Shown here piece after piece: positions 2,270 to 15,618 of a stretch of 64,000 nucleotides of DNA (its first letter is position 1; each line of letters begins with the position of its first letter). Below the pieces are notes generated by a model that saw nothing but the letters and a program-made list of their open reading frames with translations, did no database searches and had not been told where the DNA came from. Origin of the DNA: Escherichia coli (GTDB lineage Bacteria; Pseudomonadota; Gammaproteobacteria; Enterobacterales; Enterobacteriaceae); the NCBI RefSeq assembly GCF_003790525.1, contig NZ_CP033635.1. One strand, 5' to 3'. Both the position numbers and the translations under genes were made by a program.

Positions 2270-2775
2270 AAAACTCCTGAATGGCGCAAGTTAATCACAC
2301 ACGGCCAAAGTTCGAAATAACGCTGCACTGAAAGCCAGGCGTCAGGATAAAGCGCCATATAGTGTTTGATACGCATCAGCGGCGCAAGAAGTGGTTGCTC
2401 GCCACGGCGATAACTGTCGATAAGCGCAGCCAGCTGCTGGCGTTCTGTGGAATCAATATGAGGGCGAAAATAACCCTGAACGTGCATCAAAACGTTAGTA
2501 TGATCACGCCGGTTGGCAGGGTGAGAAAGCAAAACAATTACGCGTTGGCGGTACTGGTTGTAATAGTCATCCAGATTTTGCCACTGGTGAATATCAGCCA
2601 CAAACGGGCCAAGTTTGCGGTACTCGGGCTGGGAATGGGCCAGAAAGACGAGTTTATAGCGGCTGTGATAATCGAGAAGCGCCCCGCGCGTTAGTCCTCG
2701 ATCTTTGAGATTGTGTAACTCATGCAAAGCAAAAATGCGGATAAGGGTGCTGTCATCAAAAAGTTGTTGATTCAT
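2266..2775 (-). CDS. ybgA: DUF1722 protein YbgA, co-transcribed with phr
   Basis: 169 aa ORF matching E. coli YbgA; 4-bp overlap with phr start. Confidence 0.9.
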   Translation of the reverse strand: MNQQLFDDSTLIRIFALHELHNLKDRGLTRGALLDYHSRYKLVFLAHSQPEYRKLGPFVADIHQWQNLDDYYNQYRQRVIVLLSHPANRRDHTNVLMHVQGYFRPHIDSTERQQLAALIDSYRRGEQPLLAPLMRIKHYMALYPDAWLSVQRYFELWPCVINLRHSGVL

Positions 2776-2823
2776 TACTGCTCCTGAACGGTTTACAGGA
2801 GTAAGTGTAGACGCCGAAAAAAG

Positions 2824-2854
2824 AAAACCGCCAGCGTTTCCGCTGGCGGTTTTC
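2824..2854. terminator. Rho-independent terminator downstream of ybfA (hairpin flanked by A-run and T-run)
   Basis: AAAACCGCCAGCGTTTCCGCTGGCGGTTTTC: perfect 9-bp stem CCGCCAGCG/CGCTGGCGG with flanking A/T runs. Confidence 0.7.
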
Positions 2855-2875
2855 TTTGAACGTAATATTTAGCAA

Positions 2876-3082
2876 TCAGTAAAAATCACCCGTTGCCTTT
2901 TCGGCCTGATCCATCCACACCGGTTTCTCGCTGGTTTTCGACCAGACGCGGTGCAGGTAGCTGTAAAAGCGGGCGCGGTCTTTCCAGAAAAGCATGAAAG
3001 GCAGCGCCAGAACGCCCGCTGCAACCGCATAAGTACGGCGTAAAAAGATAAGCCATGCAGGATATTCTCTGTAGAGTTCCAT
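2876..3082 (-). CDS. ybfA: Small DUF2517 protein YbfA
   Basis: 68 aa [19 protein letters not shown]..., divergent from kdp promoter as in E. coli. Confidence 0.85.
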
Positions 3083-3294
3083 ACTTTTCTCCCCCTTTTG
3101 TATCTACCCGGTGAATGGCACCGGAAAAATGAATTTGTTTATCTGATGAAAATAGTACCGCCTTTTGTGTAATTTTACTACTCATCCGACCACTTATTTT
3201 TGTTTATTGATGGTTTATTTACATTCACTGTGTAATTAAGTTACACAAAAGTTAAATTAATACTAACCATTAGTTAAATCATGGCTTTTGCCAT

Positions 3295-3321
3295 TTTTAT
3301 ACTTTTTTTACACCCCGCCCG
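3295..3321 (+). promoter_or_regulatory. KdpE response-regulator binding site upstream of kdpFABC promoter
   Basis: TTTTTATACTTTTTTTACACCCCGCCCG, matches the T-rich/CCCCGCCC KdpE operator known from E. coli. Confidence 0.65.
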
Positions 3322-3328
3322 CAGATTT

Positions 3329-3360
3329 TTGCGAAATCTTTGCAGCCAGAATTCTACCCT
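3329..3360 (+). promoter_or_regulatory. Probable kdpFABC core promoter (TTGCGA ... TACCCT)
   Basis: -35-like TTGCGA and -10-like TACCCT downstream of KdpE site, about 35 bp upstream of kdpF GTG; exact spacing uncertain. Confidence 0.4.
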
Positions 3361-3394
3361 TCCGATATCACTTTTAGGCCACTGGAGGTGCACT

Positions 3395-3484
3395 GTGAGT
3401 GCAGGCGTGATAGCCGGCGTGTTGCTGGTGTTTTTATTACTGGGTTATCTGGTTTATGCCCTGATCAATGCGGAGGCGTTCTGA
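3395..3484 (+). CDS. kdpF: KdpF, 29-aa membrane subunit of Kdp K+-ATPase (GTG start)
   Basis: GTG AGT GCA GGC... encodes [29 protein letters not shown]; stop TGA overlaps kdpA ATG; too short for ORF track. Confidence 0.85.
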
Positions 3485-5157
3485 TGGCTGCGCAAGGGTT
3501 CTTACTGATTGCCACGTTTTTACTGGTGTTAATGGTGCTGGCACGTCCTTTAGGCAGCGGGCTGGCGCGGCTGATTAATGATATTCCTCTTCCTGGCACG
3601 ACGGGCGTTGAACGCGTACTCTTTAGCGCGCTTGGCGTCTCTGACCGCGAGATGAACTGGAAGCAGTATCTCTCTGCCATTCTCGGCCTGAACATGCTGG
3701 GGCTGGCGGTGCTGTTTTTTATGTTGCTCGGTCAGCACTATCTGCCGCTTAATCCACAGCAGTTGCCAGGGCTGTCATGGGATCTGGCGCTGAATACCGC
3801 CGTCAGCTTTGTCACCAATACCAACTGGCAATCTTATAGCGGTGAAACCACGTTGAGCTATTTCAGCCAGATGGCGGGCTTAACGGTGCAAAACTTTCTT
3901 TCTGCCGCCAGCGGGATTGCGGTGATTTTTGCCTTCATCCGTGCATTTACCCGCCAGAGCATGAGCACACTCGGGAATGCCTGGGTCGATCTGCTACGCA
4001 TCACGTTATGGGTGCTAGTCCCTGTGGCGTTGTTGATCGCACTGTTTTTTATTCAACAAGGTGCGCTGCAAAACTTTCTGCCCTATCAGGCGGTGAATAC
4101 CGTTGAAGGAGCGAAACAGCTGTTACCAATGGGTCCGGTGGCTTCTCAGGAAGCGATCAAGATGCTCGGCACTAACGGTGGTGGCTTCTTTAATGCCAAC
4201 TCGTCGCATCCATTTGAAAACCCAACCACACTGACCAACTTCGTGCAGATGCTGGCGATCTTCTTGATCCCAACAGCGCTGTGCTTTGCCTTTGGTGAAG
4301 TGGCGGGCGATCGCCGCCAGGGGCGCATGTTGCTGTGGGCGATGTCAGTGATTTTTGTCATCTGCGTAGGCGTAGTGATGTGGGCAGAAGTTCAGGGTAA
4401 TCCTCATCTGCTGGCGCTCGGCGCGGACAGCAGCATCAATATGGAAGGTAAAGAGAGCCGTTTCGGCGTGCTGGTCAGTAGCCTGTTTGCGGTCGTGACT
4501 ACGGCGGCTTCCTGCGGCGCGGTGATTGCGATGCATGATTCGTTTACCGCTCTTGGTGGCATGGTGCCGATGTGGTTGATGCAAATTGGTGAAGTGGTAT
4601 TCGGCGGCGTCGGTTCCGGCCTTTACGGCATGATGCTGTTTGTCCTGCTGGCGGTGTTTATTGCCGGGCTGATGATTGGTCGTACACCGGAATATCTGGG
4701 TAAAAAAATCGACGTACGCGAGATGAAACTGACTGCACTGGCGATTCTGGTCACCCCGACGCTGGTGCTGATGGGCGCGGCTCTGGCAATGATGACCGAC
4801 GCCGGACGTAGCGCCATGCTCAACCCTGGCCCGCATGGTTTTAGCGAAGTGCTGTACGCCGTGTCGTCCGCCGCTAACAACAACGGCAGCGCCTTTGCCG
4901 GATTAAGCGCCAACTCTCCGTTCTGGAACTGTTTACTGGCGTTCTGCATGTTTGTCGGTCGCTTCGGGGTGATTATCCCGGTGATGGCGATTGCCGGTTC
5001 GCTGGTGAGTAAAAAGAGCCAGCCCGCCAGCTCCGGTACACTGCCTACGCACGGCCCGCTGTTTGTTGGCCTGTTAATCGGCACCGTGTTGCTGGTTGGC
5101 GCACTGACCTTTATCCCTGCCCTGGCGCTTGGTCCGGTGGCGGAATATCTCTCCTGA
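3484..5157 (+). CDS. kdpA: Kdp K+-transporting ATPase subunit A
   Basis: 557 aa starting [14 protein letters not shown]; polytopic; ORF-track start 3340 is an upstream in-frame extension. Confidence 0.95.
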
Positions 5158-5179
5158 TGATATTGAGTGAGCACTGAAT

Positions 5180-7228
5180 ATGAGTCGTAAACAACTGGCG
5201 CTATTCGAACCAACACTTGTCGTTCAGGCGCTGAAAGAAGCGGTGAAAAAATTAAACCCGCAGGCGCAATGGCGCAATCCGGTGATGTTTATCGTCTGGA
5301 TCGGCAGTCTGCTGACCACCTTTATTAGCATCGCAATGGCAAGCGGCGCGATGCCTGGCAATGCGCTGTTTAGCGCGGCAATTAGCGCATGGCTGTGGGT
5401 CACCGTACTGTTCGCTAATTTCGCCGAGGCGCTGGCTGAAGGCCGCAGTAAAGCGCAGGCCAACAGTCTGAAAGGTGTAAAAAAAACCGCCTTTGCCCGC
5501 AAGCTGCGTGAGCCGAAATATGGCGCTGCGGCGGACAAAGTACCTGCCGATCAACTGCGTAAAGGCGATATCGTACTGGTAGAAGCTGGCGATATTATCC
5601 CCTGCGATGGTGAAGTTATTGAAGGGGGGGCATCGGTCGATGAAAGCGCCATCACCGGGGAATCGGCACCGGTGATCCGTGAATCCGGCGGCGATTTTGC
5701 CTCCGTCACTGGCGGTACGCGTATTCTTTCTGACTGGCTGGTGATTGAGTGCAGCGTTAACCCCGGCGAGACATTTCTGGATCGGATGATCGCGATGGTG
5801 GAAGGCGCGCAGCGACGCAAAACGCCAAACGAGATTGCCCTGACCATTCTCCTGATTGCCCTGACTATCGTCTTTTTACTGGCAACCGCCACGCTGTGGC
5901 CGTTTTCCGCGTGGGGCGGTAATGCAGTCAGCGTAACGGTACTGGTGGCGCTGCTGGTCTGTCTGATCCCAACGACCATTGGCGGTCTGTTGTCAGCGAT
6001 CGGCGTCGCCGGGATGAGTCGGATGCTGGGCGCGAATGTGATTGCCACCAGCGGACGTGCAGTTGAAGCGGCAGGTGACGTTGACGTTCTGCTACTGGAT
6101 AAAACCGGCACCATCACACTTGGTAACCGTCAGGCGTCGGAGTTTATCCCTGCGCAGGGCGTGGATGAAAAAACGCTGGCTGACGCCGCACAACTGGCTT
6201 CGCTGGCTGATGAAACGCCGGAAGGCCGCAGTATTGTGATCCTCGCCAAGCAGCGTTTTAACCTGCGTGAGCGCGATGTGCAGTCGCTTCACGCCACCTT
6301 TGTACCGTTTACTGCGCAAAGCCGGATGAGCGGGATCAACATCGACAACCGCATGATCCGTAAAGGTTCTGTCGATGCCATTCGCCGCCATGTTGAGGCT
6401 AACGGCGGTCACTTCCCTGCCGACGTCGATCAAAAAGTCGATCAGGTTGCGCGTCAGGGAGCCACGCCGCTGGTGGTGGTGGAAGGTTCTCGTGTGCTGG
6501 GCGTTATTGCGCTGAAAGATATCGTCAAAGGCGGTATTAAAGAGCGCTTCGCCCAACTGCGCAAAATGGGCATTAAAACGGTGATGATTACCGGTGATAA
6601 CCGTCTGACTGCCGCCGCGATAGCTGCGGAAGCGGGTGTCGATGATTTTCTCGCCGAAGCGACACCGGAGGCCAAGCTGGCATTGATTCGTCAGTATCAG
6701 GCGGAAGGCCGTTTGGTGGCGATGACCGGCGACGGCACCAACGATGCTCCGGCGCTGGCGCAGGCAGATGTCGCGGTGGCGATGAACTCTGGTACTCAGG
6801 CGGCGAAAGAAGCGGGCAATATGGTGGATCTCGACTCCAACCCGACCAAGTTGATCGAGGTGGTACATATTGGCAAACAGATGCTGATGACCCGTGGCTC
6901 GCTGACCACCTTCAGCATTGCCAACGATGTGGCGAAATACTTCGCCATTATTCCGGCGGCGTTCGCGGCAACGTATCCGCAGTTAAATGCGCTGAACATC
7001 ATGCGCCTGCATTCGCCCGACTCCGCCATTCTCAGTGCGGTGATTTTCAACGCCTTGATTATCGTCTTTTTGATTCCCCTGGCGTTAAAAGGCGCGAGTT
7101 ATAAACCGCTTACCGCTTCTGCCATGTTGCGCCGTAACTTATGGATTTACGGTCTGGGTGGGCTGCTGGTGCCGTTTATTGGTATCAAAGTCATTGATTT
7201 ACTGCTAACCGTTTGCGGTCTGGTGTGA
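5180..7228 (+). CDS. kdpB: Kdp K+-transporting P-type ATPase subunit B
   Basis: 682 aa; P-type ATPase motifs [17 protein letters not shown]. Confidence 0.95.
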
Positions 7229-10486: not shown

Positions 10487-11160
10487 CAAACGTTCTGATT
10501 GTTGAAGATGAACAGGCTATTCGTCGCTTTCTGCGCACGGCGCTGGAGGGCGACGGGATGCGCGTCTTTGAGGCCGAAACGCTGCAACGCGGCTTGCTGG
10601 AAGCGGCAACCCGTAAGCCAGATTTGATTATTCTCGATCTCGGCCTGCCCGATGGTGATGGGATTGAGTTTATCCGCGACCTGCGCCAGTGGAGCGCGGT
10701 GCCGGTGATTGTGCTTTCCGCACGCAGCGAAGAGAGCGACAAAATCGCCGCACTGGATGCCGGAGCGGATGATTACCTGAGTAAGCCGTTTGGCATTGGC
10801 GAATTGCAGGCCCGTCTGCGCGTCGCTTTACGCCGCCACTCCGCCACCACCGCGCCCGATCCGCTGGTGAAATTTTCCGATGTGACCGTCGATTTAGCCG
10901 CCCGCGTGATTCACCGGGGTGAGGAAGAGGTGCATCTCACGCCGATTGAATTCCGCCTGCTGGCCGTGCTGCTCAACAACGCCGGAAAAGTGCTCACCCA
11001 GCGCCAGTTACTCAATCAGGTGTGGGGACCAAACGCGGTCGAACACAGTCATTATTTGCGTATTTATATGGGGCATCTGCGACAAAAACTGGAGCAAGAT
11101 CCCGCCCGCCCCCGCCATTTCATTACTGAAACCGGTATTGGGTATCGGTTTATGCTTTGA
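10483..11160 (+). CDS. kdpE: Response regulator KdpE (OmpR family)
   Basis: 225 aa; receiver domain DLIILDLGLPDGDG; winged-helix C-terminus; ATGA overlap with kdpD. Confidence 0.95.
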   Translation: MTNVLIVEDEQAIRRFLRTALEGDGMRVFEAETLQRGLLEAATRKPDLIILDLGLPDGDGIEFIRDLRQWSAVPVIVLSARSEESDKIAALDAGADDYLSKPFGIGELQARLRVALRRHSATTAPDPLVKFSDVTVDLAARVIHRGEEEVHLTPIEFRLLAVLLNNAGKVLTQRQLLNQVWGPNAVEHSHYLRIYMGHLRQKLEQDPARPRHFITETGIGYRFML

Positions 11161-11195
11161 ATATTAATTTTAATACATCCTGCCTTTTATTAATT

Positions 11196-11226
11196 AAAGC
11201 CGTAATAATAAATACGGCTTTTTATC
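11196..11226 (+). terminator. kdpE rho-independent terminator
   Basis: AGCCGTA-ataataaa-TACGGCT hairpin followed by TTTTTA. Confidence 0.65.
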
Positions 11227-11393
11227 TTAAACAACACACAAAAATAACAATTCAATATTTTATATTACTGAGTAAAAAGTTCATCATTAAATAAATTAAG
11301 ATTGATCATTTTTTATTGATCACCTTCACAGTTCAACAGTATTTCCTGGATAGAATACCTTCACCTTCATTCACATCAGGAAAGGTAAATTAA

Positions 11394-11498
11394 ATGGAAA
11401 ATAACAGCCGCACTATGCCCCATATAAGGCGGACAACTCATATTATGAAGTTTGCTCATCGCAATAGCTTCGACTTTCACTTCTTCAATGCCCGTTAG
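11394..11498 (+). CDS. speFL: SpeFL ornithine-sensing ribosome-arrest leader peptide (34 aa)
   Basis: ATG GAA AAT AAC AGC CGC... encodes MENNSRTMPHIRRTTHIMKFAHRNSFDFHFFNAR-stop, about 255 nt upstream of speF; below ORF-track size cutoff. Confidence 0.85.
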   Translation: MENNSRTMPHIRRTTHIMKFAHRNSFDFHFFNAR

Positions 11499-11755
11499 TC
11501 TACCGACTAAGGGCACTTCAGCGTACAGGTCTTCCTGACTCTCTGTATTACAGGCATATGCCTGTATTCCGCAGTGCTCATTCTCTGTTAACCCTTGTAT
11601 TATCAGCCACCGGACTGATAAGGGTTTCTGCATTCTGAAAAAAGCAAACTTCTGATTAATTTATCAGCGGGGTAACTTTGCTTTTTTTCCGGCACGATCG
11701 ATTTCTCATTCGAGAAATTGAGGACCTGCTATTACCAAAAATAAAGAGTTGGAAA

Positions 11756-13954
11756 ATGTCAAAATTAAAAATTGCGGTTAGTGATTCTTGCCCGGACTGT
11801 TTTACCACGCAGCGAGAATGTATCTATATTAATGAAAACAGTAATATCGATGTGGCGGCAATAGTTTTATCGCTCAACGATGTTACACGCGGAAAACTCG
11901 ATGAAATCGATGCCACGGGTTATGGCATCCCGGTATTTATTGCTACTGAAAATCAAGAACGTGTACCCGCAGAGTATTTGCCCCGTATTTCGGGTGTCTT
12001 TGAGAATTGCGAATCGCGACGAGAATTTTATGGTCGTCAGTTAGAAACCGCAGCCAGCCATTATGAAACTCAACTGCGCCCGCCCTTCTTCCGCGCACTG
12101 GTCGATTATGTCAATCAGGGTAACAGCGCGTTTAATTGCCCCGGTCATCAGGGCGGCGAATTTTTCCGTCGCCATCCGGCGGGGAATCAGTTTGTGGAAT
12201 ACTTTGGTGAGGCGCTGTTCCGTGCTGACTTGTGCAACGCGGATGTGGCAATGGGCGATCTGCTGATTCACGAAGGCGCGCCATGCATTGCACAGCAACA
12301 TGCGGCAAAAGTGTTTAATGCCGATAAAACATACTTCGTTCTAAATGGCACTTCATCTTCTAACAAAGTGGTTTTAAACGCCCTGTTAACACCGGGGGAT
12401 CTGGTGCTGTTTGACCGTAATAACCATAAATCTAATCACCACGGAGCGTTGCTACAGGCTGGCGCAACACCAGTTTATCTGGAAACCGCACGCAACCCGT
12501 ATGGCTTTATCGGTGGTATTGATGCCCACTGCTTCGAAGAAAATTACCTGCGCGAACTGATTACAGAAGTCGCACCGCAGCGGGCAAAAGAGGCGCGTCC
12601 TTTCCGCCTCGCCGTTATTCAGCTAGGCACTTACGACGGTACGATTTATAACGCCCGTCAGGTGGTGGATAAAATTGGTCATCTGTGTGACTACATCCTC
12701 TTTGACTCCGCATGGGTCGGCTATGAGCAGTTTATCCCGATGATGGCGGACTGTTCACCACTGTTGCTGGATCTTAATGAGAACGATCCGGGTATTCTGG
12801 TTACGCAATCTGTGCATAAACAGCAGGCTGGTTTTTCCCAGACTTCACAAATCCATAAAAAAGACAGCCATATCAAAGGGCAACAGCGTTATGTACCGCA
12901 CAAACGCATGAACAACGCCTTTATGATGCATGCCTCCACCAGCCCGTTCTATCCGCTGTTTGCCGCACTGGATATCAACGCCAAAATGCATGAAGGCGTC
13001 AGCGGTCGTAATATGTGGATGGATTGTGTGGTAAATGGCATTAATGCCCGCAAACTGATCCTCGATAACTGTCAGCATATTCGTCCATTCGTACCTGAAC
13101 TGGTGGATGGTAAACCCTGGCAGTCGTATGAAACAGCGCAAATTGCGGTTGATCTGCGCTTCTTCCAGTTTGTACCAGGTGAGCACTGGCATTCTTTTGA
13201 AGGCTATGCAGAGAATCAATACTTTGTCGATCCGTGCAAACTGTTGCTGACAACCCCAGGTATTGATGCACGTAACGGCGAATATGAAGCGTTCGGTGTA
13301 CCCGCGACGATTCTTGCTAACTTCCTGCGCGAAAATGGCGTAGTGCCGGAAAAATGCGATCTTAACTCCATCCTCTTTCTGCTGACTCCGGCAGAAGATA
13401 TGGCCAAACTTCAGCAACTTGCTGCTCTGCTGGTACGCTTCGAAAAACTGCTTGAGTCCGACGCGCCATTATCAGAAGTACTGCCTTCCATCTACAAACA
13501 GCATGAAGAGCGCTACACCGGTTATACCCTGCGTCAGTTGTGTCAGGAAATGCATGATTTGTATGCCCGTCACAACGTGAAACAACTGCAAAAAGAGATG
13601 TTTCGTAAGGAACACTTCCCACGTGTCAGCATGAATCCACAAGAAGCCAACTACGCCTATTTACGCGGTGAAGTGGAGCTGGTTCGTCTGCCGGATGCAG
13701 AAGGCCGTATCGCTGCAGAAGGTGCGCTTCCTTATCCTCCGGGAGTGCTGTGTGTTGTTCCGGGTGAAATCTGGGGTGGTGCTGTTCTGCGTTACTTCAG
13801 CGCTCTGGAAGAAGGGATCAACCTGCTGCCAGGTTTTGCACCGGAGCTTCAGGGTGTCTATATCGAAGAACATGATGGTCGTAAGCAAGTTTGGTGCTAT
13901 GTCATCAAGCCTCGTGGTGCGCAAAGCACCCTGCTGAAAGGGGAAAAATTATGA
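11756..13954 (+). CDS. speF: Inducible ornithine decarboxylase (PLP-dependent)
   Basis: 732 aa from MSKLKIAVSDS; Orn/Lys/Arg decarboxylase fold; ORF-track start 11678 is an extension; stop overlaps potE start. Confidence 0.95.
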   Translation: MSKLKIAVSDSCPDCFTTQRECIYINENSNIDVAAIVLSLNDVTRGKLDEIDATGYGIPVFIATENQERVPAEYLPRISGVFENCESRREFYGRQLETAASHYETQLRPPFFRALVDYVNQGNSAFNCPGHQGGEFFRRHPAGNQFVEYFGEALFRADLCNADVAMGDLLIHEGAPCIAQQHAAKVFNADKTYFVLNGTSSSNKVVLNALLTPGDLVLFDRNNHKSNHHGALLQAGATPVYLETARNPYGFIGGIDAHCFEENYLRELITEVAPQRAKEARPFRLAVIQLGTYDGTIYNARQVVDKIGHLCDYILFDSAWVGYEQFIPMMADCSPLLLDLNENDPGILVTQSVHKQQAGFSQTSQIHKKDSHIKGQQRYVPHKRMNNAFMMHASTSPFYPLFAALDINAKMHEGVSGRNMWMDCVVNGINARKLILDNCQHIRPFVPELVDGKPWQSYETAQIAVDLRFFQFVPGEHWHSFEGYAENQYFVDPCKLLLTTPGIDARNGEYEAFGVPATILANFLRENGVVPEKCDLNSILFLLTPAEDMAKLQQLAALLVRFEKLLESDAPLSEVLPSIYKQHEERYTGYTLRQLCQEMHDLYARHNVKQLQKEMFRKEHFPRVSMNPQEANYAYLRGEVELVRLPDAEGRIAAEGALPYPPGVLCVVPGEIWGGAVLRYFSALEEGINLLPGFAPELQGVYIEEHDGRKQVWCYVIKPRGAQSTLLKGEKL

Positions 13955-15270
13955 GTCAGGCTAAATCGAACAAGATGGGCGTCGTTCAGTTAACCATACT
14001 GACGATGGTCAACATGATGGGCTCCGGTATCATCATGCTGCCGACAAAGCTTGCCGAAGTTGGGACAATCTCAATTATCTCCTGGCTGGTGACAGCCGTA
14101 GGCTCAATGGCACTGGCGTGGGCATTCGCAAAATGCGGTATGTTCAGCCGTAAGGCAGGTGGTATGGGCGGTTATGCGGAGTATGCTTTCGGTAAATCCG
14201 GTAACTTTATGGCGAACTACACCTACGGTGTCTCGCTGCTGATTGCTAACGTCGCGATTGCTATTTCGGCGGTTGGTTACGGCACCGAACTGCTCGGCGC
14301 GAGTTTGTCGCCAGTGCAGATTGGTCTTGCGACCATCGGGGTGCTGTGGATTTGTACCGTGGCTAACTTCGGTGGTGCGCGCATTACCGGGCAAATCAGT
14401 AGCATTACTGTGTGGGGGGTAATCATTCCGGTCGTCGGTCTGTGCATTATCGGCTGGTTCTGGTTTAGCCCGACGCTGTACGCTAACTCATGGAACCCTC
14501 ATCATGTACCGTTCTTTAGCGCTGTAGGTTCCTCCATCGCCATGACGTTGTGGGCTTTCCTCGGTCTGGAGTCTGCCTGTGCCAACGCCGAAGTAGTGGA
14601 AAACCCGGAACGTAACGTGCCAATAGCAGTCCTTGGCGGTACGTTAGGTGCGGCAGTGATTTATATCGTCTCCACCAACGTGATTGCCGGGATTGTGCCC
14701 AATATGGAGCTGGCAAATTCAACGGCACCATTTGGCCTGGCCTTCGCACAGATGTTCACACCAGAAGTGGGTAAAGTCATTATGGCGCTGATGGTGATGT
14801 CCTGCTGCGGTTCACTGCTTGGCTGGCAGTTCACCATTGCCCAGGTGTTTAAATCTTCATCTGATGAAGGCTACTTCCCTAAAATTTTCTCCCGTGTAAC
14901 CAAAGTGGATGCACCGGTTCAGGGAATGTTGATCATTGTGATTATTCAGAGTGGATTGGCACTGATGACCATTAGCCCGTCACTGAACAGCCAGTTCAAC
15001 GTGCTGGTTAACCTGGCCGTGGTGACCAATATCATCCCGTATATTCTGTCGATGGCAGCATTAGTTATTATTCAGCAGGTCGCCAATGTGCCACCGTCAA
15101 AAGCGAAAGTAGCAAACTTTGTTGCCTTTGTTGGTGCGATGTACAGTTTCTATGCGCTGTACTCATCCGGGGAAGAAGCCATGCTGTACGGTTCCATCGT
15201 GACCTTCCTTGGTTGGACACTGTATGGTCTGGTATCTCCACGCTTTGAACTGAAAAATAAACACGGTTAA
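13951..15270 (+). CDS. potE: Putrescine:ornithine antiporter
   Basis: 439 aa from MSQAKSNKMGVVQLT; APC-family transporter; ATGA overlap with speF. Confidence 0.95.
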   Translation: MSQAKSNKMGVVQLTILTMVNMMGSGIIMLPTKLAEVGTISIISWLVTAVGSMALAWAFAKCGMFSRKAGGMGGYAEYAFGKSGNFMANYTYGVSLLIANVAIAISAVGYGTELLGASLSPVQIGLATIGVLWICTVANFGGARITGQISSITVWGVIIPVVGLCIIGWFWFSPTLYANSWNPHHVPFFSAVGSSIAMTLWAFLGLESACANAEVVENPERNVPIAVLGGTLGAAVIYIVSTNVIAGIVPNMELANSTAPFGLAFAQMFTPEVGKVIMALMVMSCCGSLLGWQFTIAQVFKSSSDEGYFPKIFSRVTKVDAPVQGMLIIVIIQSGLALMTISPSLNSQFNVLVNLAVVTNIIPYILSMAALVIIQQVANVPPSKAKVANFVAFVGAMYSFYALYSSGEEAMLYGSIVTFLGWTLYGLVSPRFELKNKHG

Positions 15271-15318: not shown

Positions 15319-15354
15319 TTGACAAAGAGTTCGTTATTTATGCCGCATCCGGCA

Positions 15355-15496
15355 GGTGTAGGGTCCAAACGCGGTCGAACACAGCAACTATTTGCGTAAT
15401 TATATGAGGCATTTGCGACAAAAACTGGAACAGGATCTCGTCCGCCCCGCCATTTCATTACTGAAACCGGTATTGGGTATCGGTTTATGCTTTGAA
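15355..15496 (+). repeat. Decayed duplicate of the 3' end of kdpE (direct repeat of 11019..11161, about 90% identity)
   Basis: Read by eye: ...CCAAACGCGGTCGAACACAG...GCGACAAAAACTGG...CCGCCATTTCATTACTGAAACCGGTATTGGGTATCGGTTTATGCTTTGAA present at both loci; copy B has an early stop in the kdpE frame; preceded by a partial REP (TGCCGCATCCGGCA). Confidence 0.85.
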
Positions 15497-15618
15497 AAAA
15501 GTGGCAATGTATGGATAAAGTCATTTTTTATTCAAATATAAGGAACTTAATATTTAAAAAATGTCCCATACAATGCCTCATCATAAATGACACCGTAGCA
15601 CACAAGGAGCAAGTAGCG

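Follow-up and report, generated by a model that had tools for sequence, protein, structure and literature searches.

The open reading frame at 11394..11498 on the plus strand of the window, that is, of the whole 64-kb stretch of DNA analysed here, is with a probability of about 0.96 the gene speFL, which encodes a ribosome-borne ornithine sensor and forms the leader of the speF-potE operon in an Escherichia coli chromosome of the K-12 / SMS-3-5 locus type. Small-metabolite sensing by a ribosome via its nascent peptide has a textbook example in SpeFL, which governs acid-stress and polyamine metabolism in enteric bacteria. The leader is already characterised and annotated, and its rediscovery is biologically nothing new; it does illustrate that a sequence-only reading can recover a real 34-codon gene below the cutoffs of an ORF track. 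The identity and position of the gene, the coding selection acting on it, the conservation of its motifs, the hairpin at its stop codon, the composition bias and the structure of the spacer are results of the present analysis.

Identity and conservation of the leader gene

The frame starts with ATG, encodes 34 amino acids (MENNSRTMPHIRRTTHIMKFAHRNSFDFHFFNAR) and ends with a TAG stop codon. The ORF listing reproduces exactly the position and the letters that an earlier note on this DNA had assigned to a leader ORF. The note had further placed the end of the frame about 255 nt upstream of speF and had called it invisible to the ORF track; the spacer (11499..11755) measures 257 nt, and the default cutoff of the ORF listing is 60 aa, below which speFL falls. 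The naming of the peptide as SpeFL was correct as well. The peptide of the window is identical at 34 of 34 residues to the chain 'SpeFL' of the PDB entries 6TBV and 6TC3 (E 7.6e-20), the corresponding RefSeq protein, encoded by DNA with 100% identity to the window, is labelled 'leader peptide SpeFL' (WP_211180488.1), and the ORF shows no nucleotide differences from that of strain K-12. The Pfam family PF10940 SpeFL (DUF2618) is matched with 23.8 bits (E 4e-5), 1.2 bits under its gathering cutoff of 25 bits. The NCBIfam HMM scan of the peptide gave no model match, so PGAP must name SpeFL by another rule. The size of 34 codons alone is unremarkable, since 125 ORFs of at least 20 aa overlap the surrounding 8 kb. 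It is the identity to the PDB chain, the conservation upstream of speF and the dN/dS ratio that lift speFL beyond chance.

About 60 of the 80 loci carry speFL upstream of speF; the alignment scores are 43–182, compared with at most 31 for the opposite-strand control. In the comparison of leader ORFs across loci, neither the Pseudomonas decarboxylase homologues nor the second decarboxylase copies (L070 and L071), which were taken as speC-like, were preceded by it. Selection was analysed on 45 distinct Enterobacterales speFL ORFs. The dN/dS ratio of ~0.05–0.06 indicates strong purifying selection: the peptide is kept in the orthologous loci, and synonymous and nonsynonymous changes are not equally tolerated. 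Variable sites are found at 18, 17 and 29 of the 33 first, second and third codon positions, respectively. The residues M1, E2, N3, N4, H10, I11, R12, R13, H16, M18, R23, F26, and F28 are invariant in all 45 loci, and R12, R13, H16, M18, R23, and F26 remain so as far as Shewanella and Sutterella. The HIRRXXH segment, whose conservation the earlier note had proposed as a check, is thus invariant at all of its named residues. The Phe-rich effector core, F20, F26, F28, F30, and F31, is present in full in the peptide of the window, and the roles of these residues have been described (10.1101/604074). Across the 45 loci F26 and F28 never vary, and position 31 is occupied by F or Y. The remaining C-terminal residues are more variable, with F, L, K, I or Y at position 30, A, S, F, Y or H at position 33 and R, K or Q at position 34. 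The terminal 'FFNAR' segment, which the note had expected to be conserved, is therefore retained only loosely, and F26 and F28 take its place as the conserved effector residues. SpeFL-like leader ORFs were also observed in the beta-proteobacterial Sutterella, where His10 is missing.

Operon context and proposed mechanism

The gene order in the window is kdpE, speFL, speF, and potE. The translation of speF matches the model TIGR04301 'ornithine decarboxylase SpeF' (ODC_inducible) with 1429 bits (cutoff 1310), and PotE matches NF007938 with 853 bits and TIGR04299 with 845 bits; both proteins exceed the equivalog cutoffs. The features of the locus are listed in the table. The transcription start site of the Salmonella leader was mapped 31 nt upstream of the AUG of orf34, for which AGGA is marked as the Shine-Dalgarno sequence (PMC6386406). 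By homology, the start in the window is inferred at about 11363, likewise 31 nt before the AUG of speFL. The sequence GGATAGAATA is conserved in the alignment of the two E. coli locus types, E. albertii and S. arizonae. Most positions of the inverted repeat further upstream, which is possibly a regulator site, are invariant in the same alignment. A simple sigma-70 scan did not call the homology-inferred promoter and found no good -35 element at 16–18 nt.

Table. Features of the speFL leader and the adjacent operon genes in the window
Feature	Position	Strand	Basis or remark
Inverted repeat TGATCA-N8-TGATCA, putative regulator site upstream of the promoter	11303..11322	+	sequence, alignment
Inferred -10 hexamer TAGAAT	11351..11356	+	homology with Salmonella
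Shine-Dalgarno sequence of speFL, AGGAAAGG, purine-rich	11378-11385	+	ends 8 nt before ATG 11394
speFL, 34 codons and UAG stop	11394..11498	+	ORF listing, PDB identity, RefSeq, dN/dS
Sensor domain, codons 1-13	11394-11432	+	domain limits from 10.1101/604074
HIRRXXH ornithine-recognition motif, codons 10-16 (HIRRTTH)	11421..11441	+	role from 10.1101/604074
Effector domain, codons 14-34	11433-11495	+	domain limits from 10.1101/604074
C>G, pyrimidine-rich zone straddling the speFL stop, best candidate rut	11450..11545	+	composition, which alone cannot locate a rut
CU-rich tract GACUUUCACUUCUUC, codons 27-31, anti-SD partner of the speF RBS, proposed rut core	11472..11486	+	MFE, Salmonella
Stop-codon (pause) hairpin U GCCC G UUAGUC UACC GACUAA GGGC A	11489..11515	+	fold predictions
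Elemental-pause-like motif G-11 G-10 ... Y-1 G+1	11512..11523	+	pattern, once per 110 nt by chance
Helix H1	11512-11517 with 11573-11578	+	3 of 6 pairs change on both sides, 93.6% paired
Helix H2, by position the 'downstream-of-stop' hairpin	11527-29 with 11534-36	+	RNAalifold
Helix H3	11549-55 with 11560-66	+	RNAalifold
Helix H4 (UCAGC...ACUGA)	11603..11618	+	4 of 5 pairs change on both sides
Helices H5 (AAAAAGCA with UGCUUUUU) and H6 (CUGAU with AUCAG), then U-run	11639..11686	+	97.5% paired
Helix H7 (UCGAUUUCUC-AUUC-GAGAAAUUGA)	11698..11721	+	10 pairs, 6 change on both sides, 97.5% paired
speF ribosome-binding region and AUG, AAGAGUUGGAAAAUG	11744..11758	+	paired to the CU tract in the MFE
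speF, inducible ornithine decarboxylase, 732 aa	11756..13954	+	TIGR04301, RefSeq annotation
potE, putrescine-ornithine antiporter	13951..15270	+	start overlaps the speF stop (ATGA); HMMs, RefSeq annotation

Ornithine sensing in the exit tunnel and Rho-dependent termination before speF, both claimed by the earlier note, agree with the published work. For K-12 SpeFL, the identical peptide, the stall was demonstrated by ornithine-dependent toeprints and a cryo-EM structure, and bicyclomycin-sensitive regulation and a reporter with the 257-nt intergenic region have been described (10.1101/604074). Bicyclomycin or a rho mutation relieves termination in K-12 and Salmonella (10.1101/604074, PMC6386406), and compensatory anti-SD mutants as well as regulation by arginine and RNase G were reported for Salmonella (PMC6386406). 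In the following scheme, ornithine binding, RF1 inhibition and Rho dependence come from earlier work on the identical ORF, and the steps of stalling, Rho binding and termination rest on the published K-12 and Salmonella studies.

We propose that the transcript begins ~31 nt ahead of the speFL AUG and that RNA polymerase pauses just past the stop-codon hairpin. Without ornithine, the ribosome would terminate at the UAG codon and depart, exposing the CU-rich C>G stretch around the 3′ end of speFL, on which Rho could load and end transcription approximately 20–25 nt past the speFL stop. The exposed CU tract may also pair with the speF ribosome-binding site (RBS) and thereby hold it shut. When ornithine is present, one L-ornithine molecule would be trapped against the 23S rRNA by the N-terminal sensor hairpin (HIRRXXH), the Phe-rich C-terminal effector domain would compact, and RF1 would fail to free the peptide at the UAG codon. 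The rut / anti-SD tract would then lie under the arrested ribosome and the queue behind it. With Rho excluded in this manner, transcription would cross the structured spacer and speF-potE would be expressed. The rare Arg codons of R12 and R13 (AGG CGG) may tune the ribosome spacing, and in Salmonella the same codons link the system with the supply of arginine and, via alternative spacer folds, with decay by RNase G.

These codons are also the basis of a different reading, according to which the leader is an arginine-supply attenuator: the speed of the ribosome at R12-R13 selects between alternative spacer folds and RNase G decay, and ornithine is secondary. Arginine does down-regulate Salmonella speF through the Arg codons and RNase G (PMC6386406). 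In the window the rare codons ATA (I11), AGG (R12) and CGG (R13) lie at 11424-11432, with the Arg pair at 11427-11432, and they are conserved in 26, 33 and 23 of the 45 loci, respectively. In addition, helix H1 overlaps in its coordinates with the 3′ arm of the stop hairpin (11509-11515), the two structures are mutually exclusive competitors, and the structure of the spacer is conserved. However, both arginines are invariant at the amino-acid level and touch ornithine in the structure, and the substitutions R12K/R13K abolish the arrest in an in vitro system, in which the supply of tRNA is no constraint (10.1101/604074). Purifying selection also extends beyond the Arg codons and covers the whole peptide. 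An attenuator driven by arginine supply is unlikely, and the arginine-codon effect is more aptly regarded as a further layer of the ornithine-sensing element than as an alternative to it.

The stop-codon region and the structured spacer

The stop-codon hairpin holds the codons of Ala33 and Arg34 and the UAG stop. In 20 Enterobacteriaceae, 86% of the alignment cells of this hairpin are paired compared with 21–46% when the helix is slid. The covariation is thin, with two pairs changed on both sides, and the 5′ arm is partly constrained by coding. The segment consisting of the ORF and the proximal spacer (11394-11560), which contains this conserved hairpin, is only mildly more stable than shuffles (z = -1.96). 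In Salmonella the leader transcript terminates in a Rho-dependent manner at nt 157 (PMC6386406). For the window, the elemental-pause-like motif at 11512..11523 is weak evidence for a predicted premature 3′ end at 11522, which would be nt 160 from the inferred transcription start. The text-form supplementary 3′-end tables of Adams et al. 2021 contain no 3′ end in the speFL leader; at this locus they list only an antisense 3′ end within speF.

The earlier note had regarded the spacer as C-rich and structure-poor and consistent with a rut region. The data do not support this description and contradict the alleged lack of structure. With 22.6% C and 19.5% G (C/G 1.16) the spacer is weakly C-rich overall, and its predicted fold has an energy of -78.5 kcal/mol compared with -57.0 +/- 4.7 kcal/mol for shuffles (z = -4.59, 0 of 200 shuffles). 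The C>G bias is instead centred on the stop codon of speFL. In 78-nt segments from 11400 to 11550 the C/G ratio amounts to 1.5–1.8, which corresponds to the 90th–95th percentile of the window. In the 45 orthologs the ratio is 1.8–1.9 from -45 to +45 around the stop, with C exceeding G in 84–93% of the loci, and the bias is gone beyond +105. The Rho-entry-like composition thus sits on the stall site and not along the spacer. This putative rut matches the published one at the stall site: a rut or CU-rich tract was predicted within or overlapping the 3′ end of the ORF (10.1101/604074, PMC6386406), and the CU-rich tract at nt 112-124 of the Salmonella leader was proposed as rut (PMC6386406).

The CU-rich tract is also the predicted partner of the speF RBS. 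In the MFE structure of the full leader, positions 11472-11485 are paired with 11744-11760. Two of the predicted pairs, C11478-G11751 and A11479-U11750, have counterparts in the Salmonella leader (C116-G511 and A117-U510) that compensatory mutations have confirmed (PMC6386406). The anti-SD duplex of the window (-8.4 kcal/mol) is no better than the shuffled controls, and support for the pairing stems from the relatives, with duplexes that reach -12 to -17 kcal/mol compared with about -7 kcal/mol for shuffles, and from the Salmonella compensatory mutants. The speF RBS of the window carries T11749 and G11752, where K-12 has A at both positions; these variants might reset the anti-SD lock.

The helices H1–H7 of the spacer were obtained from the RNAalifold consensus and mapped onto the window. 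Across 16 genera, 94.5% of the cells of these seven helices are paired compared with 42–49% when slid, and 18 pairs show changes on both sides, which makes the spacer a conserved structured RNA. Helix H1 encloses H2 and H3 in an element spanning 11512..11578; a downstream-of-stop (DS) hairpin, to which H2 corresponds by position, has been described in the Salmonella leader (PMC6386406). The MFE structure lengthens H4 to AACCCUUG...UAAGGGUU. A second small ORF within the spacer (ATG at 11558, 26 aa) was considered and rejected: its start codon falls within the H3 loop and is unconserved in the alignment. We regard it as quite improbable that the 257-nt spacer is a regulatory RNA domain itself, or that the variant RBS of the window resets the anti-SD lock. 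If true, the spacer domain might respond to a second signal, with pH and polyamines as examples, or work as a programmed RNase G / translation switch. Such a role would go beyond the SpeFL-Rho model and the 'ring-like structure' of Salmonella.

The A-tract, hairpin and U-run of H5-H6 (11639-11686 plus the T-run) are terminator-like in shape, and attenuation could be Rho-independent at this point if they formed an intrinsic terminator. The terminator scan flags 11666-11682 with the T-run TTTTTTCCGG, and the element is conserved across genera. However, the stem beside the U-run is A/U-rich with two to three G-C pairs, and the long H5 stem is A/U-rich as well. No Rho-independent terminator was reported for the Salmonella leader by Ben-Zvi et al., and the short Salmonella transcript ends far upstream, at nt 157 (PMC6386406). 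The relief of termination by bicyclomycin also argues against an intrinsic terminator, which we consider very unlikely.

The alpha-proteobacterial speF RNA element, which we take to be RF00518 of Rfam, is likewise a conserved leader that precedes a gene for ornithine decarboxylase, and to our knowledge it is an RNA-only motif without a leader peptide. By analogy to what was proposed for this element, the leader of the window could be a riboswitch-like, RNA-only switch with a chance ORF, as the spacer is a conserved structured RNA and ORFs of this size are common by chance. Yet a scan of 11100-11900 on both strands at E<=1 gave no Rfam match, the speF family included. The dN/dS of ~0.05 and the concentration of variation at third codon positions also oppose this reading, the peptide has been seen inside the ribosome (PDB 6TBV/6TC3), and start-codon and nonsense mutants abolish expression in Salmonella (PMC6386406). 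The codon-position pattern and the published mutants refute an RNA-only switch, to which we give hardly any credence. Assignment of the conserved sequence to the 85-codon antisense ORF at 11376..11633 (-), which is present in the window and whose codon-aligned frame is stop-free across the speFL span in 32 of the 45 loci, is refuted by the comparative data and negligible in probability: among the loci, the longest ATG-initiated antisense ORF near speFL varies in length between 20 and 101 aa and is hence unconserved, the variable sites are third positions in the sense and first positions in the antisense frame, and RefSeq carries no annotation for it.

Related systems and locus types

The closest known system is the speFL leader of K-12 (PDB 6TBV/6TC3; Herrero del Valle et al., 10.1101/604074, later Nat Microbiol 2020), with which the window shares the peptide, the nucleotides of the ORF, the 257-nt spacer, the UAG stop and the neighbouring genes kdpE and speF-potE. 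The window allele differs from it by 10 nt in the spacer, among them the speF RBS positions 11749 and 11752, and by 4 nt in the upstream intergenic region. The leader of Salmonella Typhimurium, orf34, is an orthologous 34-codon ORF (Ben-Zvi et al. 2019, PMC6386406). Its published stop codon is UGA (PMC6386406), whereas S. arizonae, the Salmonella representative compared here (locus L008, leader peptide MENNNRFMPHIRRTTHIMMFAHRNSFDFHFFNAR), has TAG. The Salmonella peptide differs from that of the window at three positions (S5N, T7F, and K19M). The stop-codon hairpin, the CU-rich anti-SD tract, the AGG-CGG codon pair and the distal spacer helices are common to both. The Salmonella spacer is longer, ~380 nt, with an insertion of ~120 nt after H3 relative to the window.

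A further comparison is offered by TnaC, the leader peptide of tnaCAB, which responds to tryptophan through a different binding site in the tunnel and acts on RF2 at a UGA codon. We know of no sequence relationship between TnaC and SpeFL. The two have in common that ligand-dependent arrest at the stop codon blocks the release factor, masks the rut site and prevents Rho termination (10.1101/604074).

Two divergent speFL locus types were observed within E. coli. The second type, found in E. coli and E. albertii (e.g. strain M45, WP_001312672.1), has the same order of kdpE, speFL, speF, and potE as the window, and its peptide differs only by S5N and T7L, with the motifs unchanged. Its speF DNA is 90–95% identical to that of the window. 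The spacer of the second type measures 309 nt and contains an insertion of ~50 nt, which is a multi-copy repeat. The second type occurs in ~3330 genomes and the type of the window in ~1700. A loss of the leader in two-thirds of the E. coli genomes was rejected, as the apparent absence reflects the second divergent leader type. The two locus types, the kdpE relic and the Sutterella leaders without His10 may be of interest to specialists. The relic is a 3′-end fragment of kdpE that follows potE in the window, so that the operon is bracketed by kdpE sequence; in the second type the kdpE' relic is missing and potE abuts pgm.

The leader ORF and its surroundings

The element upstream of speF in the window is the SpeFL switch. 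The length of 34 codons is by itself unremarkable, as 125 ORFs of 20 aa or longer overlap the surrounding 8 kb, and the case for speFL therefore rests on identity and conservation. The earlier note had recognized the ORF as that of the arrest peptide SpeFL, and its coordinates, sequence and TAG stop were reproduced exactly (11394..11498, plus strand). The peptide is identical at 34 of 34 positions to the SpeFL chain of PDB entries 6TBV and 6TC3 (E 7.6e-20), which bears out the assignment. The RefSeq annotation agrees: the 640 nt around speFL show 100% identity to E. coli SMS-3-5 and further RefSeq chromosomes, on which the ORF is named speFL, 'leader peptide SpeFL' (WP_211180488.1). Relative to the K-12 derivative MC4100, no nucleotide differs in the ORF, 10 differ in the spacer and four in the upstream intergenic region. 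The Pfam model PF10940 'Leader peptide SpeFL' scores 23.8 bits on the window peptide, slightly below its 25-bit cutoff; the NCBIfam scan of the peptide gave no model match and the Rfam scan of the leader region returned nothing at E<=1. SpeFL is an already known element, with a solved structure and annotation in RefSeq and EcoCyc.

The genes kdpD and kdpE are the upstream neighbours of speFL. The spacer between speFL and speF (11499..11755) measures 257 nt, as does the corresponding intergenic region of E. coli K-12 (bioRxiv 10.1101/604074).

Features of the speFL-speF-potE region and of its leader RNA (H1-H7, spacer helices)
Feature	Position	Strand	Basis or remark
Putative -10 hexamer TAGAAT	11351-11356	+	homology
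Inferred transcription start (TSS)	~11363	+	homology with Salmonella
Shine-Dalgarno of speFL	11378-11385	+	AGGAAAGG
speFL ORF	11394..11498	+	ATG start, encodes MENNSRTMPHIRRTTHIMKFAHRNSFDFHFFNAR, stop TAG
Stop-codon hairpin	11489-11515	+	predicted fold; holds Ala33 and Arg34 codons and UAG
Pause-like motif G-11 G-10 ... Y-1 G+1	predicted 3′ end 11522 (nt 160 from inferred TSS)	+	
H1	11512-17 with 11573-78	+	RNAalifold, 16 genera
H2	11527-29 with 11534-36	+	RNAalifold, 16 genera
H3	11549-55 with 11560-66	+	RNAalifold, 16 genera
H4	11603-07 with 11614-18	+	RNAalifold, 16 genera
H5	11639-46 with 11679-86	+	RNAalifold, 16 genera
H6	11652-56 with 11663-67	+	RNAalifold, 16 genera
H7	11698-707 with 11712-21	+	RNAalifold, 16 genera
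speF	ATG at 11756	+	TIGR04301 'ornithine decarboxylase SpeF', 1429 bits vs cutoff 1310
potE	13951..15270	+	NF007938, 853 bits; next gene after speF

The block 5′ of speFL contains an inverted repeat TGATCA-N8-TGATCA (11303-11322), TTCACA (11325-11330) and TAGAAT (11351-11356), and is largely invariant among E. coli, E. albertii and Salmonella arizonae. Judged from its sequence, this block (11303-11356) is probably the promoter with a putative regulator site; no -35 element stands at standard spacing from TAGAAT. A terminator-like hairpin at 11196-11221 (AAAGCCGTA...TACGGCTTT, then a T-run), 36 nt past the kdpE stop codon, is presumably the kdp operon terminator, insulating speFL from kdpE read-through.

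Coding constraint and distribution of SpeFL

All upstream ATG ORFs of 80 speF-like loci, one genome per species, were scored against SpeFL. A SpeFL-like ORF is present in about 60 of them, with scores of 43-182 versus at most 31 for the opposite-strand control. None was detected among the upstream ATG ORFs of the Pseudomonas decarboxylase loci, nor at the second decarboxylase copy that Yersinia thracica and Edaphovirga each carry, taken here to be speC-like. These loci serve as natural negative controls for speFL.

Selection was assessed on 45 Enterobacterales loci with the 34-codon core, all distinct in DNA sequence. The sites varying at codon positions 1, 2 and 3 number 18, 17 and 29 out of 33, dN averages 0.080 and dS 1.264 (ratio 0.064), and the two other sense frames contain stops in every locus. 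With a median pairwise dN/dS of 0.050, the conservation in orthologous loci on which the earlier note had made its reading depend was found. Residues M1, E2, N3, N4, H10, I11, R12, R13, H16, M18, R23, F26 and F28 are invariant, so that the HIRRXXH segment proposed there is fully conserved. Its second proposed segment, the C-terminal FFNAR, did not hold up, as positions 30-34 all vary (F30 F/L/K/I/Y, F31 F/Y, N32 N/H, A33 A/S/F/Y/H, R34 R/K/Q). The rare codon ATA for I11 is kept in 26 of the 45 loci; rare Arg codons are kept as AGG at R12 (33/45) and as CGG (23/45) or CGA (12/45) at R13. The stop codon is TAG in 24 loci and TAA in 21. An 85-codon antisense ORF (11376..11633) was rejected as a candidate: it lacks conservation, since the length of the longest antisense ORF differs between loci, from 20 to 101 aa, and the variable sites of speFL would be its first codon positions.

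In the wider family including Shewanella and Sutterella, R12, R13, H16, M18, R23 and F26 are still invariant. SpeFL-like leaders such as MHVNAYVQNSVIRRIRHIMCFVCRSCFSFHRFSSASTNAS precede speF in Sutterella/Burkholderiaceae (comparison loci L052, L057, L058, L059, L064, L067 and L081), 165-400 nt upstream and with an AGGAG Shine-Dalgarno. In six of these seven loci speF is followed by potE (65-67% identical); a tblastn search with potE gave no match at L067. The leaders belong to beta-proteobacteria and thus lie beyond the gamma-proteobacterial range reported for SpeFL (bioRxiv 10.1101/604074). They keep the same six residues, but differ from E. coli SpeFL in exceeding 34 positions and in lacking His10, which is replaced by V, T or G, although the substitution H10A abolishes SpeFL stalling in E. 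coli.

Leader RNA and control of speF

Of the steps of the switch, our analysis shows the ORF and its context, the constraint on the coding sequence and its motifs, the hairpin, the bias in base composition and alternative structures that are conserved. In experiments on the identical ORF, L-ornithine was trapped between the HIRRXXH hairpin and 23S rRNA, the Phe core compacted and RF1 was unable to act at UAG, stalled ribosomes masked the predicted rut, and bicyclomycin led to constitutive expression (bioRxiv 10.1101/604074). In Salmonella, leader translation also opens an anti-SD lock, and the leader Arg codons couple expression to the arginine supply and to decay by RNase G (Ben-Zvi et al. 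2019, PMC6386406). In the window, ornithine held by the HIRRXXH hairpin would accordingly compact the Phe core and block RF1 at UAG, stalled ribosomes on speFL would mask the rut, and translation of the leader would open the anti-SD lock. The Arg codons of speFL may likewise couple the switch to the supply of arginine and to decay by RNase G. Attenuation by arginine only, an intrinsic terminator at H5/H6, a switch made of RNA only and the antisense ORF are each either extra layers on the SpeFL switch or contradicted.

The spacer had been described as C-rich and structure-poor, consistent with a rut region. Overall it is barely C-rich (22.6% C, 19.5% G, C/G 1.16) and, far from lacking structure, is strongly folded, with an MFE of -78.5 kcal/mol (z = -4.59) that none of 200 dinucleotide shuffles attained (-57.0 +/- 4.7), and with seven consensus helices. 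These were derived with RNAalifold from 16 genera whose spacers are similar in length and then mapped to window coordinates. In the alignment 94.5% of cells are paired versus 42-49% with the partners slid by 1-3 columns, both sides have changed in 18 of 44 pairs versus 3-8 when slid, and the observed covariation was reached by none of 500 column shuffles, the consensus structure having been built from the alignment on which it was scored. It is quite improbable that the conserved seven-helix spacer senses or switches beyond the published models.

The stop-codon hairpin is paired in 86% of cells among 20 Enterobacteriaceae, versus 21-46% when slid; only two pairs have changed on both sides, and its 5′ arm is coding. 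H1 shares positions with its 3′ arm, and the two are therefore mutually exclusive, which is consistent with the alternative folds described for the Salmonella leader (PMC6386406). The H5/H6 region (11639-11692) consists of a conserved A-tract, a two-step hairpin and a U-run, with 97.5% of cells paired across the 16 genera. From this arrangement it looks like a weak bidirectional intrinsic terminator; the Salmonella leader study reports none of this kind (PMC6386406).

The C>G bias is rut-like and centred on the speFL stop codon, in agreement with the published models. Windows of 78 nt with C/G 1.5-1.8, the 90th-95th percentile of the 64 kb, span about 11400 to 11550 and again 11520 to 11617, and the distal spacer past 11600 has C/G of at most 1.1. 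Across the 45 orthologs, C/G is 1.93, 1.82 and 1.83 at -45..-16, -15..+15 and +16..+45 from the stop; in these bins 84-93% of loci have more C than G and the pyrimidine content is 62-66%, and the bias is absent beyond +105. Part of it arises because the effector codons are rich in Phe, His and Asp (UUY, CAY, GAY). In the more distant Hafnia, Serratia and Yersinia a C-rich run directly follows the stop. The predicted rut of the SpeFL paper overlaps speFL and is masked by the stalled ribosome (bioRxiv 10.1101/604074); in the Salmonella mRNA a CU-rich tract lies at nt 112-124, inside the ORF, and Rho-dependent termination gives a 3′ end at nt 157, some 21 nt beyond the stop (PMC6386406). The pause-like motif has a chance frequency of once per 110 nt.

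Folding the whole leader (11363-11780) to its MFE brings the CU tract in the 3′ end of speFL (11472-11485) into pairing with the speF RBS and AUG (11744-11760). The pairs C11478-G11751 and A11479-U11750 are the positional equivalents, assuming an equal TSS-AUG distance of 31 nt, of two Salmonella pairs confirmed by compensatory mutation, C116-G511 and A117-U510 (PMC6386406). In relatives this duplex reaches -12 to -17 kcal/mol versus about -7 for shuffles; in the window allele T11749 and G11752 reduce it to -8.4 kcal/mol, which is no better than shuffles. At both of these positions in the speF ribosome-binding region, A is the base in K-12 and in nearly all relatives (AAAGAGAUGAAA).

Locus types and the kdpE relic

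In Escherichia sp. ESNIH1 (L078) and Pseudocitrobacter faecalis (L027), a speF-like gene (~80% identical) lies directly 3′ of kdpE, at a distance of 240-270 nt. At both loci the search for a SpeFL ORF or motif, in all frames, was negative, as was that for potE within 3 kb of the gene. ESNIH1 retains the promoter-like TTTTTATTGATCAACCTCAC and the pre-RBS AATTGAGGGGCGATTATTACCTAAAATAAGGA, which is what a deletion of the leader ORF and most of the spacer would leave.

Within E. coli, two deeply divergent speFL-speF versions occur (window 11161-13954 versus 2355-5241 of the E. coli M45 locus, L082), and in about half of the genomes the speF DNA is just 90-95% identical. The gene was matched in 5124 of 5426 E. 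coli genomes, over most of its length in 4678, and is absent or partial in the remaining few hundred. The locus type of the window (K-12/SMS-3-5), with the 257-nt spacer, is found in ~1700 of the 5426 genomes. The second, in ~3330, combines SpeFL S5N/T7L and a 309-nt spacer with the 90-95% identical speF DNA, and its potE abuts pgm without a kdpE relic. Its spacer carries an insertion of ~50 nt (L082 about 2852-2890), a ~39-nt segment of which has a median of 4 and a maximum of 9 matches per E. coli genome and is therefore a small dispersed repeat. This repeat may resemble the ends of ERIC/IRU elements. At the corresponding spacer position Salmonella carries a larger insertion. RefSeq calls a 44-aa 'hypothetical protein' in the second type (WP_001295874.1, L082 2516-2650) in another frame, overlapping the speFL start; it lies across the region of the promoter and 5′ UTR, and the call is probably spurious.

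Just past potE, at about 15345-15497, the window holds a frameshifted kdpE relic ~90% identical to 11018-11163. It comprises the last ~145 nt of kdpE including the stop codon, with a 1-nt deletion, is listed in RefSeq as a 'winged helix-turn-helix' pseudogene, and is followed by a DUF2625 gene and a lipoprotein gene. As a copy of the kdpE 3′ end, the relic forms a direct repeat bracketing the speFL-speF-potE module, which suggests that the module was inserted or replaced via recombination within kdpE.
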